From Gaiellales bacterium (lineage in GTDB: Bacteria > Actinomycetota > Thermoleophilia > Gaiellales > F1-60-MAGs149): DNA of 64,000 nucleotides. This document shows, piece by piece, positions 5,033 through 51,334 of this stretch. The stretch's first letter is position 1; the number at the start of each line of letters is the position of its first letter. The notes under the pieces are model-generated. The model saw only the letters and a program-made list of their open reading frames with translations. It ran no database searches and had not been told where the DNA came from. The stretch spans positions 5,239 to 69,238 of the forward strand of contig JBBQFB010000001.1 in assembly GCA_038321545.1 (NCBI GenBank), read 5' to 3'. A program made the position numbers and the translations under genes.

Positions 5033-5733
5033 GGCTCTCGCTGACTGCGCTCTGCGCGGCGCTCGCACTCGCAGCCTGCGGCGGCAGCGACGATGGCGCG
5101 GCGACCAGCGCGCCGGCCGCGAACGGCGACGCCGCGACGACGGCCGAGGTCGCACCCACCGACGCCGCAACGACGGGGGGCGCGGGCGGTACGGCGTGCC
5201 AGAGCGGCGAGCCGCCGCTGGTGAACCCGAAGACGTACAAGGCGCCCCCGAAGGCGCCGGCGGGCGACATGCTGACGATGAAGACGTCCTGCAGCACGAT
5301 CACGTTCCAGCTGGATCGCGACCTCGGCGGTGAGGTCGCCGACGCCGTCGCCGGCCTCGCGGCCGACGGGTTCTACGACGGGCTCACGTTCCACCGCGTG
5401 GTGCCCGACTTCGTGCTGCAGGGTGGCGATCCGGACGGCACCGGTGCCGGCGGCCCCGGCTTCTCGACCGTCAAGGCCCCACCGGACGGCTACGCCTACG
5501 CCGTCGGCGACCTCGCAATGGCAAAGACGCAGGACGAGGCACCCGGCACCGGGGGCTCGCAGTTCTTCGTGATCTCCGGCGCCCAGGGCCAGCAGTTGCC
5601 GCCCGACTACGCCGTCATCGGGCATGCGACCGATCCCGGCTCGCTCGCCACGATCGGCCACATCGCGGCGCTCGCAGTCGAGGACGGCCCGCCGTCGCAG
5701 CCGGTCTGGATCGTCAAGGCGACCGTGTCGTGA
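5020..5733 (+). CDS. cyclophilin-type peptidyl-prolyl cis-trans isomerase, lipoprotein
   Basis: TTG start after GGAGG; lipobox LALAAC; FHRVVPDFVLQGGDPDGTGAGGPGF, GSQFFV. Confidence 0.85.
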   Translation: MGPLRLSLTALCAALALAACGGSDDGAATSAPAANGDAATTAEVAPTDAATTGGAGGTACQSGEPPLVNPKTYKAPPKAPAGDMLTMKTSCSTITFQLDRDLGGEVADAVAGLAADGFYDGLTFHRVVPDFVLQGGDPDGTGAGGPGFSTVKAPPDGYAYAVGDLAMAKTQDEAPGTGGSQFFVISGAQGQQLPPDYAVIGHATDPGSLATIGHIAALAVEDGPPSQPVWIVKATVS

Positions 5734-5772
5734 GCTAGTGCTCCGCAGCCCGCGGACTTCCGACGCGGGACA

Positions 5773-6588
5773 TCAACCGCCCGCGACGTCGCGACGCTGG
5801 AAGACGATGTACGCGAGCGCCAGGGCCGGGACGGCGTAGAGCGGGCACACCCAGGCGGCGTGGACGATGGGAGCCGTGTCGATCGGTTCGCGCAGCAGGC
5901 CCTGCCAGGCGTCGAACTGGCTCGTCAACAGGTACGGGCGCACGCCGCCGAATCCGGGGAGCACGCCGACCAGCTGCATCAGCAGCGAGAGCATCAGCGT
6001 CCCGACCACCGCGCCCGCCGAGTTGCGGGTCAGCGTCGAGAGCATCACGCCGAGGGCCACGACCGAGACCAGCGGCATCAGGTAGACCGCCAGGCTGACG
6101 AAGACGAGCAGCGTGGCGCGGGTGGCGCTGACCTCGGTTCCGGTCAGCGTCTTCAGCGGATTGAACCCCGACTGGATGCTGCCGGCGACGATCGCCGTCG
6201 TGACCATCAGCGTGATCGCCAGGATGGAGTAGGCGGCGGCGACGAGCACCTTGCCGGCGAACACCTGGCCACGGTTGATGGAGCGCGTCAGGATCGTCTT
6301 CAGCGTCCCGTTCTGGTCCTCGGAGGCGACGATGTCGCCAGCCACCAGCGCAGCGATCAGCGGGAACAGCCAGATCGACCCGAACACCAGCATCAGCAGC
6401 GGGATGGCGAGGCCGCTCGACCGCACGGACGCGCCGAACGGCTCGTCGGTGGGGGCGCCGTTCTGCACCGCGAGCGCGCCGACGAACAGCAGCGGGGCGC
6501 CGATCGCGGCGGCGAGGCCCAGGTAGGTTCGCTTCTGGGACACGAGCTTGCGTGCCTCCCAGCGGCTGACAGTGAGCACTCCGGGCAT
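5773..6588 (-). CDS. ABC-2 type transporter permease
   Basis: 271 aa, about six hydrophobic segments; 1-nt start/stop overlap with upstream ATPase gene. Confidence 0.75.
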   Translation of the reverse strand: MPGVLTVSRWEARKLVSQKRTYLGLAAAIGAPLLFVGALAVQNGAPTDEPFGASVRSSGLAIPLLMLVFGSIWLFPLIAALVAGDIVASEDQNGTLKTILTRSINRGQVFAGKVLVAAAYSILAITLMVTTAIVAGSIQSGFNPLKTLTGTEVSATRATLLVFVSLAVYLMPLVSVVALGVMLSTLTRNSAGAVVGTLMLSLLMQLVGVLPGFGGVRPYLLTSQFDAWQGLLREPIDTAPIVHAAWVCPLYAVPALALAYIVFQRRDVAGG

Positions 6589-7559
6589 CAGACGGCCTCC
6601 AACGCCGGCTCGCCGACCGGCGGATCGGTGGTGGCCGAAGCGAGACCATCACCCTCGGTGATGGCGAAGAACAGCTCTTCGAGCGTCGCCGTGACAGGAA
6701 CCAGCGAGCGCAGCGCGATGCCCTCGCCGGCCAGGGCCAGCGACAGCTCCTCGACCGCTCGCGGCTCGGTGGCGACGAACGCGACGTGATCGGCGAGCCG
6801 CACGACATCGCGAACGCCGCGGCGCCCGGCCGCGAAGGCCGCGGCGCGGTCGTCGTCGGCGGTTGTCATGCGGTACCGGCCGGCGGCGCTCGCGAGCAGG
6901 TCGGCGAGCGGGCCCTGGTACACCATCCGGCCCCGCTGGACGATGCCGACGGCGTTGCACAGCTCCTGCACCTCGTCCATCAGGTGGCTCGACAACAGGA
7001 CGGTCATCCCGTCGTCGGCGAGCCGGCGGATGAGCAGGCGCATGTCGCGCATGCCCGCCGGATCGAGTCCCGTGGCCGGCTCGTCGAGCAGGAGCAGCCG
7101 CGGTGCGCGCAGCAGCGCGCCTGCGATGCCGAGGCGCTGGCGCATGCCGTGCGAGTACCCGCCGACGCGGTCACCCGCGCGGTCGGCGAGCTCGACGGTG
7201 TCGAGCGCGGCATCGATGCGACCGGCGGCCCCGTCACCGTCGAACGCGGCGACCAGCTCGAGGTTCTTCCGGCCGGTGAGATAGGGATAGAACCGCGGCG
7301 CCTCGACGAATCCCGCCACGCCGTCCAGCGCTGCGGCGCCCTCCGCGAGCGGATCGCGCCCGAACAGCCGGGCGGTGCCGGCGGTCGGGCGGATCAAGCC
7401 GAGCAGCATCCGCAGTGACGTCGTCTTTCCTGCGCCGTTCGGACCCAGGTAGCCGTAGACGTCGCCGGGCTGGACGACCAGGTCGATCTCGTCGACCGCT
7501 CGCAGCTCGCCGTAGACCTTGGTGAGTCCGCGGGCCTCGACCGGGAGCGCGTCCGCCAT
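6588..7559 (-). CDS. ABC transporter ATP-binding protein
   Basis: Walker A GPNGAGKTT, signature-like YSHGMRQRL, Walker B LLLLDEP. Confidence 0.9.
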   Translation of the reverse strand: MADALPVEARGLTKVYGELRAVDEIDLVVQPGDVYGYLGPNGAGKTTSLRMLLGLIRPTAGTARLFGRDPLAEGAAALDGVAGFVEAPRFYPYLTGRKNLELVAAFDGDGAAGRIDAALDTVELADRAGDRVGGYSHGMRQRLGIAGALLRAPRLLLLDEPATGLDPAGMRDMRLLIRRLADDGMTVLLSSHLMDEVQELCNAVGIVQRGRMVYQGPLADLLASAAGRYRMTTADDDRAAAFAAGRRGVRDVVRLADHVAFVATEPRAVEELSLALAGEGIALRSLVPVTATLEELFFAITEGDGLASATTDPPVGEPALEAV

Positions 7560-23337: not shown

Positions 23338-23410
23338 GCCGCGCCGACAAGAGGCGAGGCTCATTGCAGACCCCGCAGCGCACACCGCCGGCGTTTGGCG
23401 AAAATCGCGA

Positions 23411-23450
23411 GGGTCTGACCCCCGTGGCCGGGCGTTTCGGGGTCAGACCC
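23411..23450. other. perfect 12-bp inverted repeat (GGGTCTGACCCC / GGGGTCAGACCC) with 16-nt loop in a 338-bp non-coding spacer
   Basis: Arms 23411-23422 and 23439-23450 counted from the MoxR stop; no convincing U-tract on either strand. Confidence 0.6.
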
Positions 23451-23675
23451 CAGAACGCAATGTGCCGGAAGGCGCGCATCTTGACCGATCTGTCGCACGG
23501 CGTTCTGTTACGGCGCGGAGCGAGACGACCGGGTGCGTTGGAGCCGTGGTGGACTGGCGGGGTGCAATCTGCACAGCGATTGCCAGCGCCGGCCCGGATC
23601 CGGTTCGGCGCCGGCGACCGGCACCTACGGCGCACCTCGTCGACCGCCGGGGCGCCCATCGCAGACGCCGACTGG

Positions 23676-47303: not shown

Positions 47304-48413
47304 GTGAACGACCGCTTCGGATCCCGCCTCACCGAGCTGTGCGGCATCGATTCCTTCACCGGCGACATCCCCGGTGTCGACCGCGCCGCCCACCTGCTCG
47401 CGCGGTGGGCCAGCGAGGCGGGGCTCGAGGTCGAGCTCGTGCCGTCGCCCGACGGCCTGCACCTGATCGCGTCCACGCAGGGCGCCGGTCGTGGCCGCGT
47501 CCTGTTCATCGGGCACCACGACACCGTGTTCCCGGCGCCGACTGCGGTCGAGCGTCCGGTCACGGTCGCGGGCGGCCGCCTGTTCGGCCCGGGCGTGGCC
47601 GATATGAAGGGCGGCGTGCTCGTCTCGCTGGACGCGCTCGCACGGCTGGCGGCCGACCCCGCGGGCTCGCACGGGCGGGTCGAGCTGCACTGCGTGCCGG
47701 ACGAGGAGGGCCGCAACGTCGAACCGCACACGCTCGATCGGATGCGCGGCGCCGACGCCGCGCTGTGCTTCGAGTGCGGCAGAGCGTCGGGCGCGATCGT
47801 GACGGTGCGCAAGGCGGGCACCTGGCTCGACATCTACGCGAAGGGGCGCGCGGCGCACGCCGGCACCGAGCCGCACGAGGGCCGTTCGGCGCTGATGGCG
47901 CTAGTGTACGAATCGATCCGGATCTGCAAGGAGATCGACGGCGCCCGGCCGGGGCTGACGGCGAACATCACCTGGTTCCACTCCGGCGACGTCAAGAACA
48001 CGATCCCCGACCGGGCCGAGGCGACGGTCGATGTCCGTGCGCTCACGAGTGCCGATCTGGACTGGGCGTTCGACCGGATCGGCGAGTTCGGCGTGCACGA
48101 CGGTGTCGACGTGCGGCGCTCCGACGACCGTGGCTTCCCGGCCATGGAGCGTGCGAACTGGCTCGCCGACCGCACGCTCGAGATCCTCGCCGAGCTCGGC
48201 CAGCCGGCGTTGGAGGAGATGGCGGGCGGCGTCTCGGACGGCTCGTGGATGAGTAGGATCGGCATCCCGACGGTCGACGGCATGGGCCCGGTGGGCGCCC
48301 TCGACCACACCGAGGACGAGTACATCGAGATCGCGTCGATCGATCCGCGCATCGAGGCCACGGTGCGTCTGGTGCGGGAGCTCGGGCGGATGGGGTCATC
48401 ACCTGGCACTTGA
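47304..48413 (+). CDS. M20 family metallopeptidase (carboxypeptidase G2 / ArgE-DapE-like)
   Basis: 369 aa; GHHDTVF, GVADMKGG, PDEEG; last 8 codons lie in the repeat anchor. Confidence 0.85.
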   Translation: MNDRFGSRLTELCGIDSFTGDIPGVDRAAHLLARWASEAGLEVELVPSPDGLHLIASTQGAGRGRVLFIGHHDTVFPAPTAVERPVTVAGGRLFGPGVADMKGGVLVSLDALARLAADPAGSHGRVELHCVPDEEGRNVEPHTLDRMRGADAALCFECGRASGAIVTVRKAGTWLDIYAKGRAAHAGTEPHEGRSALMALVYESIRICKEIDGARPGLTANITWFHSGDVKNTIPDRAEATVDVRALTSADLDWAFDRIGEFGVHDGVDVRRSDDRGFPAMERANWLADRTLEILAELGQPALEEMAGGVSDGSWMSRIGIPTVDGMGPVGALDHTEDEYIEIASIDPRIEATVRLVRELGRMGSSPGT

Positions 48414-49205
48414 GCGATCCGACCCGGCTGCTCGTCCGGCCGACCGCAGACAAGCCGGCCCGGCGCACCGCTCCGGGCTGCGGCGTAGACCCCACTCATC
48501 GCAAGCCGGCGAACGCCTCACCAGCGCTACTCCCAGCACCCAATACCCCACCCAAAATCCGCGGCACCCAACGCAGACCCGCCCAGCGCAGCCCGAAGCA
48601 GCTCAGCCCGAAGGCTGCGATCCGCCTCGTCCCGGATCCGGATGGGGTCATCACCTGGCACTTGAGACGTCCCCCTGTCGCCTCCGCGCTTGCGGCTGGT
48701 GCCGGCCACCGACGAAAGCTGCACGCCACCGCCGCTGCACCCGCGGATGCCTGGCGTCTGCGATCCGACACGGCCGCTCGTCCGACCCACGACAGACAAT
48801 CCCGGCCCGGCGCAGGCTCCGGGCTGCGGCGCGGACCCCACTCATCGCAAGCCGGCGAACGCCTCACCAGCGCTACTCCCAGTACCGAATACCCCACCCG
48901 AAATCCGCGGCACCAAACGCAGACCCGCCCAGCGCAGCCCGAAGCTGCTCGGCCTCAAAGGCTGCAATCCGCCCGCCGCAGACTCGCCCAGCGCAGCCCG
49001 AAGCAGCTCAGCCCGAAGTCTGCGCTCGGCCTCGTCCCGGATGCGGATGAGGTCATCACCTGGCATTTGAGACGTCCCCCTGTCGCCTCCGCGCATGCGG
49101 CTCTTCACGGCCACCGACGAAAGCCGCACGCCACCACGGCCACCCGCGTACGCCTTGCGTCTGCGATCCGCGACGGCTGCTCGTTCGGCCTGAGGCGGAC
49201 CCAGC
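48392..49205. repeat. mosaic degenerate tandem repeat (three units anchored by GGGGTCATCACCTGGCACTTGAG), apparently non-coding
   Basis: Anchor at 48392, 48644 (identical) and 49049 (2 mismatches); exact 49-mer at 48488-48536 and 48834-48882; shared or missing sub-modules between units. Confidence 0.85.
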
Positions 49206-49253
49206 CTCGGAGCCGTCCAACACCGGGACGTGAGCCTCACAGGCTGCGATCTG

Positions 49254-49967
49254 TCAGCCGCCGATCACTCCCGGCACCGGCTTGTCGCCGAACCACTTCC
49301 GCCACGCGTCGCCCAGCGCGCCGCTCGCGATCGCCCGGCCGATGCCGTCGTCCAGCAGCGCCACCGTGCCGGCGTCGCCCAGACGGCACGCGGCACCCCA
49401 GGCGTTCTGCGTCTCCGCGACGTGCGCGATGCGGAACCGGCCGCTCGCGAGCTGCGCGCCGAACGCCGGCTCGTCATCGACCATCGCGTCGACCGCTCCC
49501 GACTCGACGGCTGCGACCATCTCGGCGAACACGTCGTCCGAGGATCCGTCGAAGCCCACCAGCTCGGCCGCGCCGAACGACTCGGCGAGCCGCATGTTGG
49601 TCGACGCGACGATCGCGCCCACACGCCGTCCGGCGAGATCTGCCAGCGAGCCGATATCGGAGTCGGCACGCACCAGCACGGCCTCGTCGATCGCGCCGTA
49701 CGGCCGCGAGTAGGAGAACACCTTGCGGCGCTCGTCGGTGATCGCCGAACCACACCAGATCGCATCGACCTCGCCGTCGGCGAGCGCACCCGCGAACCGG
49801 TCCCAGCGCCGGAACTCCCACACCAGCAGGAGCCCGATGGCGTCGGCCACACACGCGGCGGCGTCCGGCTCGAAGCCGTCGCGCGAGCCGTCCGGCGCCG
49901 TCCAGAACAGCGGTCGCGCGTCCATGTCGGCGCAGCACAGCGTGAGGCGGCCCGGTACGACGGTCAC
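49254..49967 (-). CDS. family-3 solute-binding-protein-fold protein without signal peptide
   Basis: Trimmed to GTG 49967 (GTGA overlap with GS-like stop); SBP_bac_3-like blocks (..DAIWCGSAITDERRKVFSYSRPY.., ..VDAMVDDEP..); no N-terminal hydrophobic segment. Confidence 0.75.
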   Translation of the reverse strand: MTVVPGRLTLCCADMDARPLFWTAPDGSRDGFEPDAAACVADAIGLLLVWEFRRWDRFAGALADGEVDAIWCGSAITDERRKVFSYSRPYGAIDEAVLVRADSDIGSLADLAGRRVGAIVASTNMRLAESFGAAELVGFDGSSDDVFAEMVAAVESGAVDAMVDDEPAFGAQLASGRFRIAHVAETQNAWGAACRLGDAGTVALLDDGIGRAIASGALGDAWRKWFGDKPVPGVIGG

Positions 49968-51334
49968 GGCAGCGCCCGCAGGTACATCTCGCGGTGCCAC
50001 TCGGTGACCGTCGAGCAGAACCGCTCCCACTCGTCGGTCTTGTACTCCACGAACGCGTCGAACAGCCCGGCCGGCAGCGCGCCGCGCACGACGTCATCGG
50101 CCTGCAGCAGGGCGAGCGCGTCGCCGAGTGTCCGCGGCAGCTTCGCGTCGCCCGCAACGGCCGGGTCGGACGAGTCGCCGGCCTGGGGCGGCCCCGGATC
50201 GAGGCCGGCCTCGAGGCCGTGCGCAATCGCCACCAGCACCGCGGCATGCGACAGGTACGGGTTCACGCTGGCGTCCGGCAGCTTGTACTCCAGGCGTCCC
50301 GACGCCGACACGCGGATCGCGCAGGTACGGTTGTCGAAGCCCCAGTTGACGGCACCGGGAGCGAACTGCCCGGCGTCCCAGTAGCGGGCGTAGGAGTTCA
50401 CCGTCGGTGCACAGAGCGCGAGCATGCCGGGTGCATGCGCGAGGATGCCGGCGATCGCGTGACGCGCCGTGTCGGTGACGTGCAGCGTCGGGTCGGCCGG
50501 ATCGGCGAAGACGTTGTGGCCGTCGCGCCACAGTGACAGGTTGTGGTGACACCCGTTCGCCATCGCGCCCACCGCCGGCTTCGGCATGAAGCTCGCGATC
50601 ACGCCGAACTCCCGCGCCACCTGCGCACACACCTGCCGGTACGTGACGAGGTTGTCGCAGGTGCGGTCGCAGCGGTCGTACTGGAAGTTCAGCTCCAGCT
50701 GGCCCGCGTCCTCGTAGTCGCCCTCGATCATGTCGAGCCCGAGGGCCTGCGCGTAGCCGACGACCTTGCGGACGATCGGCCGCATCATCTCGAGCGCGCC
50801 GAAGTGGTACGCGGGCGACACGTTCGGCTGCGACCACGGCTCGATCTCCGGGCCGAGCCAGCTCATCTCGGGCTCCGTGCCCGACCGCAGCTCGTAGCCG
50901 GTCCGCTGCTCGAAGTCGGCGTGCACGCGGGTGAGGTTCGACCGCACGCACGTCGGCAGCGGCGTGCCGGGATCGACCGCCCGGTCACGGCGGTGGTAGA
51001 GGTTGCAGTACATCCGCCCGAACCCCGTGTCCCATGGGAGCACCTGGAACGTGCTCGCGTCGGGCAGCGCCACGAACTCCTCCGCCTCGCCGCCCGAGGC
51101 GATCAGCGTGCCGGCGCGGCTGGTGGCCAGATCCGCGACGGCCGAGCCGTGGAACTGGACGCCGCGCTCCAGGTTGCGCGCCAGGTGCCGCGCAGGGACG
51201 ACCTTCGCCATCACCCGGCCGTTGAGCGTCACGAACTGGTAGTAGACGAACTCGACGCCGGCGTCGCGGATGTGAGCGGCCAGGTCGGGCTCGAGCGTGG
51301 CGTTGGCGGCGGCCTGCTCGTCGAGCGCGGTCAC
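49964..51334 (-). CDS. glutamine synthetase family protein (GS-like gamma-glutamyl ligase, substrate unknown)
   Basis: 456 aa; ..FMPKPAVGAMANGCHHNLSL.., GS beta-grasp N-terminus. Confidence 0.88.
   Translation of the reverse strand: MTALDEQAAANATLEPDLAAHIRDAGVEFVYYQFVTLNGRVMAKVVPARHLARNLERGVQFHGSAVADLATSRAGTLIASGGEAEEFVALPDASTFQVLPWDTGFGRMYCNLYHRRDRAVDPGTPLPTCVRSNLTRVHADFEQRTGYELRSGTEPEMSWLGPEIEPWSQPNVSPAYHFGALEMMRPIVRKVVGYAQALGLDMIEGDYEDAGQLELNFQYDRCDRTCDNLVTYRQVCAQVAREFGVIASFMPKPAVGAMANGCHHNLSLWRDGHNVFADPADPTLHVTDTARHAIAGILAHAPGMLALCAPTVNSYARYWDAGQFAPGAVNWGFDNRTCAIRVSASGRLEYKLPDASVNPYLSHAAVLVAIAHGLEAGLDPGPPQAGDSSDPAVAGDAKLPRTLGDALALLQADDVVRGALPAGLFDAFVEYKTDEWERFCSTVTEWHREMYLRALP

Follow-up and report, generated by a model that had tools for sequence, protein, structure and literature searches.

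Mycobacterial interspersed repetitive units of the variable-number tandem repeat type (MIRU-VNTR) are tandem units of 40 to 100 nucleotides (nt) that occur at many loci. They are among the described kinds of repeat with which we compare an array found in a Gaiellales bacterium, where repeated units of about 400 bp fill the spacer between two convergent genes, one for an M20 peptidase and one for a solute-binding protein (SBP). The array lies in a 64,000-nt stretch of contig JBBQFB010000001.1 (assembly GCA_038321545.1, positions 5,239 to 69,238), referred to here as the window; coordinates are those of the window unless another locus is named. We think it probable that this is a lineage-specific, minisatellite-like array of noncoding DNA, duplicated in tandem with a long, roughly 400-bp period, at a convergent junction that tolerates insertions. 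In kind, the array is a new instance of a known sort of bacterial intergenic repeat.

From what is generally known of MIRU-type repeats, the likeness is considerable. The array consists of intergenic, noncoding copies arranged head to tail, it varies in copy number and by indels between relatives, and its edge copy overlaps the flanking gene and supplies the stop codon, here with the last eight codons of the peptidase gene. As in VNTRs, a copy resembles the others of its genome more closely than it does its orthologue. Unlike MIRUs, again as generally described, the array has units of 252 to 405 nt, is seen at a single locus, and has inverted-repeat arms, and its sequence is not known to resemble theirs. 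The comparison with miniature inverted-repeat transposable elements (MITEs) and foldback elements is likewise mixed. The unit, at about 360 nt, is noncoding and falls below 600 bp, the related array of a second genome (L004, see below) has long terminal inverted repeats, and the array occupies a convergent intergenic site with presence/absence polymorphism. Unlike such elements, the array has no target-site duplication around each copy, neither dispersed copies nor a parent insertion sequence was found in the 64 kb or in about 120 kb of related loci, and the period includes flanking sequence. Like the repetitive extragenic palindromic (REP) sequences and bacterial interspersed mosaic elements (BIMEs) of proteobacteria, the array is a mosaic of short modules in a 3′ intergenic, convergent setting, but it lacks their alternating palindromic core of 20 to 40 nt and has no other copies in the window. 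A literature search returned nothing on repeats in Gaiellales.

Anatomy of the array

The two convergent genes are separated by 840 bp (48414 to 49253), and the repeat region as a whole runs from 48387 to 49240. It comprises about 2.4 head-to-tail units, the first 252 nt and the second 405 nt long and the third truncated. An initial annotation of this DNA, made from the letters alone, had picked out a 23-nt anchor and several shared modules, and all of the listed motifs and positions check out, with a chance expectation of none. The anchor is exact at 48392 and 48644 and has two mismatches at 49049, giving spacings of 252 and 405 bp; within the 64 kb it is unique to the array, and 0 of 100 shuffled sequences contained any match to it. 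A 49-mer is exactly repeated at 48488 and 48834, and the block that follows the anchor is present at 48667 and 49072, with unit 1 lacking this R module. A 20-mer occurs at 48926 and 48985, to which we can add a third copy at 48580. No other repeat of any size exists in the window, and the spacer is also the longest stretch there without a codon-position GC signal.

The units can be followed from left to right on the plus strand. Anchor copy 1, taken here as 28 nt (CGGATGGGGTCATCACCTGGCACTTGAG, 48387 to 48414), encodes RMGSSPGT and the peptidase stop. The body of unit 1 (48414 to 48638), a P module and tail with no R module, is 89.7% identical to 48760 to 48984, with 1-nt indels. Anchor copy 2 (48639 to 48666), identical to the first, precedes the R module of unit 2 (48667 to 48759), which has a predicted hairpin whose fold differs among copies (z, −0.7 to −2.2). 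The P module and tail of unit 2 (48760 to 49043) contain the 59-nt internal duplication seen by self-comparison (48918 to 48973 versus 48977 to 49031, 84% identity). Anchor copy 3, with its two mismatches, was located by the anchor search at 49044 to 49071, and it leads into the R module and truncated P module of unit 3 (49072 to 49240), which end the array and are 88.6% identical to their equivalents in units 1 and 2 up to 49190. An nhmmer profile of the unit places unit 3 at 49044 to 49240.

Self-comparison, both gapless and gapped, ties these parts together. The region from 48414 to 48626 aligns with 48760 to 48973 at 90% identity, and 48572 to 48787 aligns with 48977 to 49190 at 88%; further pairs are 48414 to 48608 with 48760 to 48954 (88 to 90%), 48567 to 48735 with 48972 to 49140 (90%), and 48738 to 48787 with 49141 to 49190 (84%). 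Unit 1 is thus unit 2 minus the 94-nt R module and minus the 59-nt internal duplication, which accounts for the difference between the 252- and 405-nt spacings. The plus strand of the array is strongly C rich (GC skew, −0.21, versus +0.04 for the L004 array).

A homologous array at the same junction

Exact-protein look-ups gave the loci orthologous to that of the peptidase gene. Of the relatives with DNA, L004, from sample JGI 3300075606, is the closest, at 86% nucleotide identity in the peptidase gene and 88% over 5.5 kb. A 700-bp insertion (5495 to 6194 of that locus) occupies exactly the corresponding peptidase junction; about 1.8 units, 84 to 88% identical, are repeated there in tandem every 398 nt. 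The two arrays are colinear (window 48594 to 49190 versus L004 5547 to 6136), with identity in 61% of alignment columns, or 73% ungapped. Given that fourfold degenerate sites of the peptidase gene are 68% identical between the two genomes, close to the value for the arrays, the arrays are probably orthologous and have diverged about as fast as neutral sequence. Within either genome, the copies are 84 to 90% alike, compared with 61 to 73% between genomes, and this pattern in the sequences points to concerted evolution or to independent recent duplication. With 2.4 units in the window, 1.8 in L004, and none in the other relatives, the distribution is that of tandem duplication with concerted evolution. 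In both genomes, the repeated unit extends into the end of the gene, which argues for segmental duplication and not for repeated insertions.

Divergence is not even along the array. The best-conserved part is a 63-nt island at 48843 to 48905 (unit 1 copy, 48497 to 48559), with 28 of 30 matches between window and L004 in the best stretch of the alignment (permutation p = 0.006). The R module also has blocks conserved with L004, CGCCTCCGCGC..CGGCTGG..CCGACG..GCTGCACG..GCTGCAC.CGCGGATGCC.

The array was found elsewhere only in L004, at the matching junction, and the remaining relatives have either nothing or unrelated insertions there. In L001 to L003, L012 to L014, and L016, there is no spacer at all; a convergent gene for a small membrane protein of about 106 amino acids (aa) directly adjoins or overlaps the stop of the peptidase gene, and we take this junction to be the ancestral empty site. 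On either side of the L004 array lies a direct copy, 16 to 22 nt long, of the segment in which the genes of these "empty" genomes overlap (left, TAGCCGG[TGTCCG]CGGTGAGCAT; right, TCAGCCGGCGGTGAACAT, also written AGCCGGCGGTGAACAT); any insertion that spared both of the overlapping open reading frames (ORFs) would require such a duplication. Other occupants of the junction are an unrelated 229-bp spacer in L015, a glyoxalase gene in L024 (a 4.17-Mb genome, ERZ25039476 contig_1998), and, in the contig of P0020 (JGI 3300041967), about 490 bp of inserted sequence in which an ORF of 161 aa was called, the last known from gene calls only. In L023 (ENA ERZ25039524 contig_56683), an unrelated tandem repeat with a 154-nt period and 95% identity lies directly past the peptidase stop (6709 to 6965); it contains a 9-bp palindrome (ATGTCCGAT...ATCGGACAT), and the contig terminates within it.

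The array does not encode protein

The spacer had been regarded as noncoding from the start, and this judgment is supported. A repetitive protein-coding gene, or a set of tandem minus-strand genes for small proteins, might be suspected from long open frames, of 133, 132, and 64 aa on the minus strand and of 126 aa on the other, and from a minus-strand UGAUG stop/start overlap within the anchor. However, the region from 48414 to 49230 has a GC content of about 0.7 at all three codon positions, whereas the flanking genes reach 0.9 to 1.0 at third positions. Mismatches between units fall into codon phases as 12/6/5 and 6/10/9, showing no 3-nt periodicity. Indels between units are 1, 2, 59, and 94 nt long, of which 59 and 94 are not multiples of three, and they break the reading frame, so that open frames are lost from one unit to the next. 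The six-frame translation of the array, searched as a concatenate, gave 0 matches among 5.8e9 proteins, and none of the longest array ORFs reached the cutoff against Pfam. Neither protein homology nor third-position-biased substitution, the two signs by which the initial annotation would have recognized a coding repeat, was found. A coding array is thus extremely improbable and effectively refuted already; the array is noncoding DNA.

The array is also unlike the neighboring family of 106-aa membrane proteins. A decayed duplicate of that gene was considered and rejected, a profile of seven orthologues giving a best E value of 0.08 against the six-frame arrays. We also rejected A-specific mutagenesis like that of diversity-generating retroelements; differences between units are not A biased (14 transitions/9 transversions; 10/15), and no reverse transcriptase domain was found among the neighboring genes scanned or called.

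Inverted repeats and the possibility of a mobile element

The units of L004 contain inverted repeats. There, GTGGATGGGGTATTGGGT (5589 and 5985) is 94% complementary to ACCGAATACCCCATCCAC (5857) over an 18-nt core, and the arms extend to 40 to 57 nt around a body of about 250 nt, with 0 of 500 shuffles scoring as well. In the window, the 3′ part of the island forms the right arm, which aligns in reverse complement with the left arm of L004 (none of 500 shuffles did as well). The left arm of the window, made up of tail and anchor, is decayed, with 241 of 500 and 23 of 500 shuffles scoring as well. It follows from these arms that the ancestral unit would have had a foldback- or MITE-like shape.

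One might then imagine a nonautonomous MITE or foldback element that inserted repeatedly or beside itself and is also present elsewhere in the genome, much as the initial annotation had proposed in suggesting a pile-up of MITE- or REP-like elements. Apart from the arms themselves, this would be in keeping with the presence/absence polymorphism among close relatives, with the duplicated target segment around the L004 array, and with the fact that the best-conserved part of the unit is the right-arm island. The array also sits on a synteny breakpoint, which on such a view would reflect recombination between two copies at different loci. The inverted repeats of 18 to 57 nt in the L004 units do support that part of the proposal, but the remainder fares less well. 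No target-site duplication was found at the arm ends of individual units, and only the L004 array as a whole is flanked by one. In both genomes, the tandem period takes in about 30 nt of inter-element sequence plus the gene end, as expected of segmental duplication. A transposase with matching ends was not seen.

Dispersed copies were also sought, without success. Across the window and about 120 kb of related loci, the nhmmer profile detected nothing beyond the copies of the array, whereas the same sample contains three occurrences of a true REP-like hairpin. The array had 0 blastn matches to plasmids and phages, and the inverted-repeat core had chance matches only among viral contigs. Searching genome and metagenome contigs for the island pattern gave only chance matches in unrelated phyla, and these scans say nothing either way, since both the source genome and L004 are absent from the collections. 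Taken together, we regard a mobile element of this sort as unlikely, though of some weight.

The REP-like hairpin is of interest on its own. It consists of GGGGTCTGACCCC-N15-GGGGTCAGACCCC with a 13-bp stem, lies in intergenic DNA at 23403 to 23477 of the window (stems, 23410 to 23422 and 23439 to 23451), and recurs in intergenic positions in L025 (8678 to 8718) and L026 (5160 to 5200). It looks like a truly dispersed repeat family of the clade, unrelated to the array. Nothing on this motif was mentioned in the literature that we searched.

The array lies on a synteny breakpoint

By the limits of homology on both sides, the segment from 48390 to 49252 has no counterpart in either of the syntenic blocks that meet here, and it is the breakpoint between them. 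Homology of the left block (to L001, L004, L023, and L024) stops at 48370 to 48389, and that of the right block (to the SBP loci L025 and L026, where ADH and/or WecG genes come after the SBP gene) starts at 49253. In relatives, genes for the small membrane protein, an Fe-dependent repressor, and a hydrolase come next after the peptidase gene; all three are missing throughout the 64 kb. Since the array is exactly at the junction of blocks that are not adjacent elsewhere, there was either a true rearrangement, which truncated unit 3, or a chimeric join.

An assembly artifact would mean that this contig, from a metagenome-assembled genome (MAG), joins two loci that do not belong together or contains a miscollapsed repeat. 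The coincidence of the array with the switch between blocks speaks for such an error, and in L023, too, a tandem repeat at this junction is where the contig stops. Nevertheless, L004 is an independent assembly and has a homologous tandem array on the same peptidase gene. The units are 10 to 12% diverged, and hence assemblable, and both blocks are similarly diverged (86 to 88%) from the same group of relatives. A chimeric join, moreover, would affect the right-hand junction only and not the array. We therefore consider an artifact very improbable. Among the origins put forward at the outset, a local duplication or recombination scar fits best, given the single junction, the concerted evolution, and the exact breakpoint.

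RNA structure and cis-acting functions

A tandem small-RNA locus, also put forward initially, finds no backing here. More broadly, the array might provide a functional RNA or cis-acting element, whether as tandem small RNAs, as a structured 3′ untranslated region, or as a selected terminator or insulator module. The conserved 63-nt island and R-module blocks would be consistent with this, as would the hairpin of about 73 nt that RNAalifold predicts from the four R-containing copies, with invariant outer stems and a few two-sided changes; two of the L004 copies fold at a z of about −2. Yet Rfam gave nothing below E = 0.76 for the window or for the L004 and L023 loci, and no promoter-like or terminator-like sites were found in the array. 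Folding of whole units was no better than that of shuffled sequences (z = −0.42 and +0.36 on the two strands). Single-sequence folds of the R copies disagree with one another, and the invariant outer stems yield no covariation information in an alignment of only four to five sequences. The R module is wholly missing from unit 1, and most close relatives lack the element altogether. The minus-strand hairpin CAGCC-UUCG-GGCUG, first noticed in the initial annotation, is indeed present at 48604 to 48617, but it is mutated in unit 2 and is thus not conserved between units. It is highly doubtful, then, that the array is a functional RNA or regulatory element of this kind.

Searches of the window for tRNA and tmRNA found none. 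A canonical G-quadruplex motif (GGGTGGGGTATTGGGTGCTGGG) lies on the minus strand at 48532 to 48553, one of only five in the window. We rejected it as a feature of the array; it occurs in unit 1 only and hence is not conserved.

A model for the origin of the array

We infer the following order of events, in which a tandem duplication array arose at a single junction and was reshaped in place. Before the lineages of the window and L004 separated, noncoding DNA of foreign or de novo origin, consisting of a body of about 250 nt between inverted repeats of about 40 to 57 nt, would have been inserted between the peptidase gene and its convergent neighbor. Next, the whole spacer, including gene-end sequence, would have been duplicated head to tail. 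Later reshaping may have proceeded by unequal recombination or replication slippage, plus gene conversion, holding the copies within a genome at 84 to 90% identity while the two genomes drifted apart at a roughly neutral rate. In the lineage of the window, illegitimate recombination would have fused the peptidase ORF in frame to the anchor, giving it a new tail of seven residues. Unit 1 would have lost its 94-nt R module there and unit 2 gained the 59-nt duplication, and unit 3 would have been truncated at a chromosome rearrangement, or at a contig join, onto the SBP block. As to function, we infer that the array most probably has none that is sequence specific; at most, it might act as a passive spacer or insulator between the convergent transcription units.

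Several observations weigh against this account. The inverted repeats of L004 have the shape expected of a mobile foldback or MITE element. The island and the R-module blocks are more conserved between the genomes than the remaining array, a hint that they may be constrained in some way, perhaps by protein binding, by a role as a transposition end, or by a motif in RNA. Finally, what can be said of genome-wide copy number is limited, in that the collections scanned include neither the source genome nor the L004 sample. One can envision, accordingly, that the unit, with its inverted arms, R hairpin, and 63-nt island, is an undescribed nonautonomous element, or that the island and R module together form a cis-acting RNA or protein-binding module, although we judge this to be distinctly unlikely. 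Such an element would belong to Gaiellales-like Actinobacteria, would target overlapping convergent 3′ ends, and would amplify in tandem and promote rearrangement.

Flanking genes

The peptidase gene (47304 to 48413, plus strand), of the M20/M25/M40 type and named "glutamate carboxypeptidase," has the Pfam domains PF01546 and PF07687 and matches protein P0001 at 100%. By its protein matches, it groups with Gaiellales-like MAGs. The final 27 nt of its ORF (48387 to 48413), the last eight codons RMGSSPGT plus the stop, are repeat sequence. Homologues are conserved through "...ELG," and the tails beyond it differ lineage by lineage: RRIS, QRPVA, R, AGSV, LRDASRR, SGVLKP, and others in relatives, and RMGSSPGT* in the window. 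Divergent tails such as these (window 48384 to 48413) imply that the DNA just beyond codon ~361 turns over very fast in the clade. Peptidases that are at least 90% identical to one another (P0003, P0241, P0243, and P0244) differ past ELG, with RRIS, QRPVA, R, or a frameshifted end.

The convergent neighbor (49254 to 50030, minus strand) encodes a solute-binding protein of the SBP_bac_3 family (Pfam PF00497), and its orthologues were retrieved as well. Elsewhere in the operon, the second short-chain dehydrogenase gene is intact in L004, L012, L016, and L023, at about 229 aa, and only a 40-aa remnant is kept in L001 to L003 (about 3239 to 3361 in L001). At the dehydrogenase position, the window has about 560 bp more than L001 (45068 to 45628).

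Implications

For annotation, the last eight codons of the annotated peptidase derive from the repeat. For assembly, the contig changes synteny exactly at the array, and the linkage of the two blocks is to be read with that caution. More generally, this site illustrates how, in an actinobacterial lineage without cultured members, the place where two convergent genes overlap comes to collect insertions and to undergo local amplification. Were the element to prove capable of movement or to be transcribed, it would found a new family of repeats in an order that has received little study.

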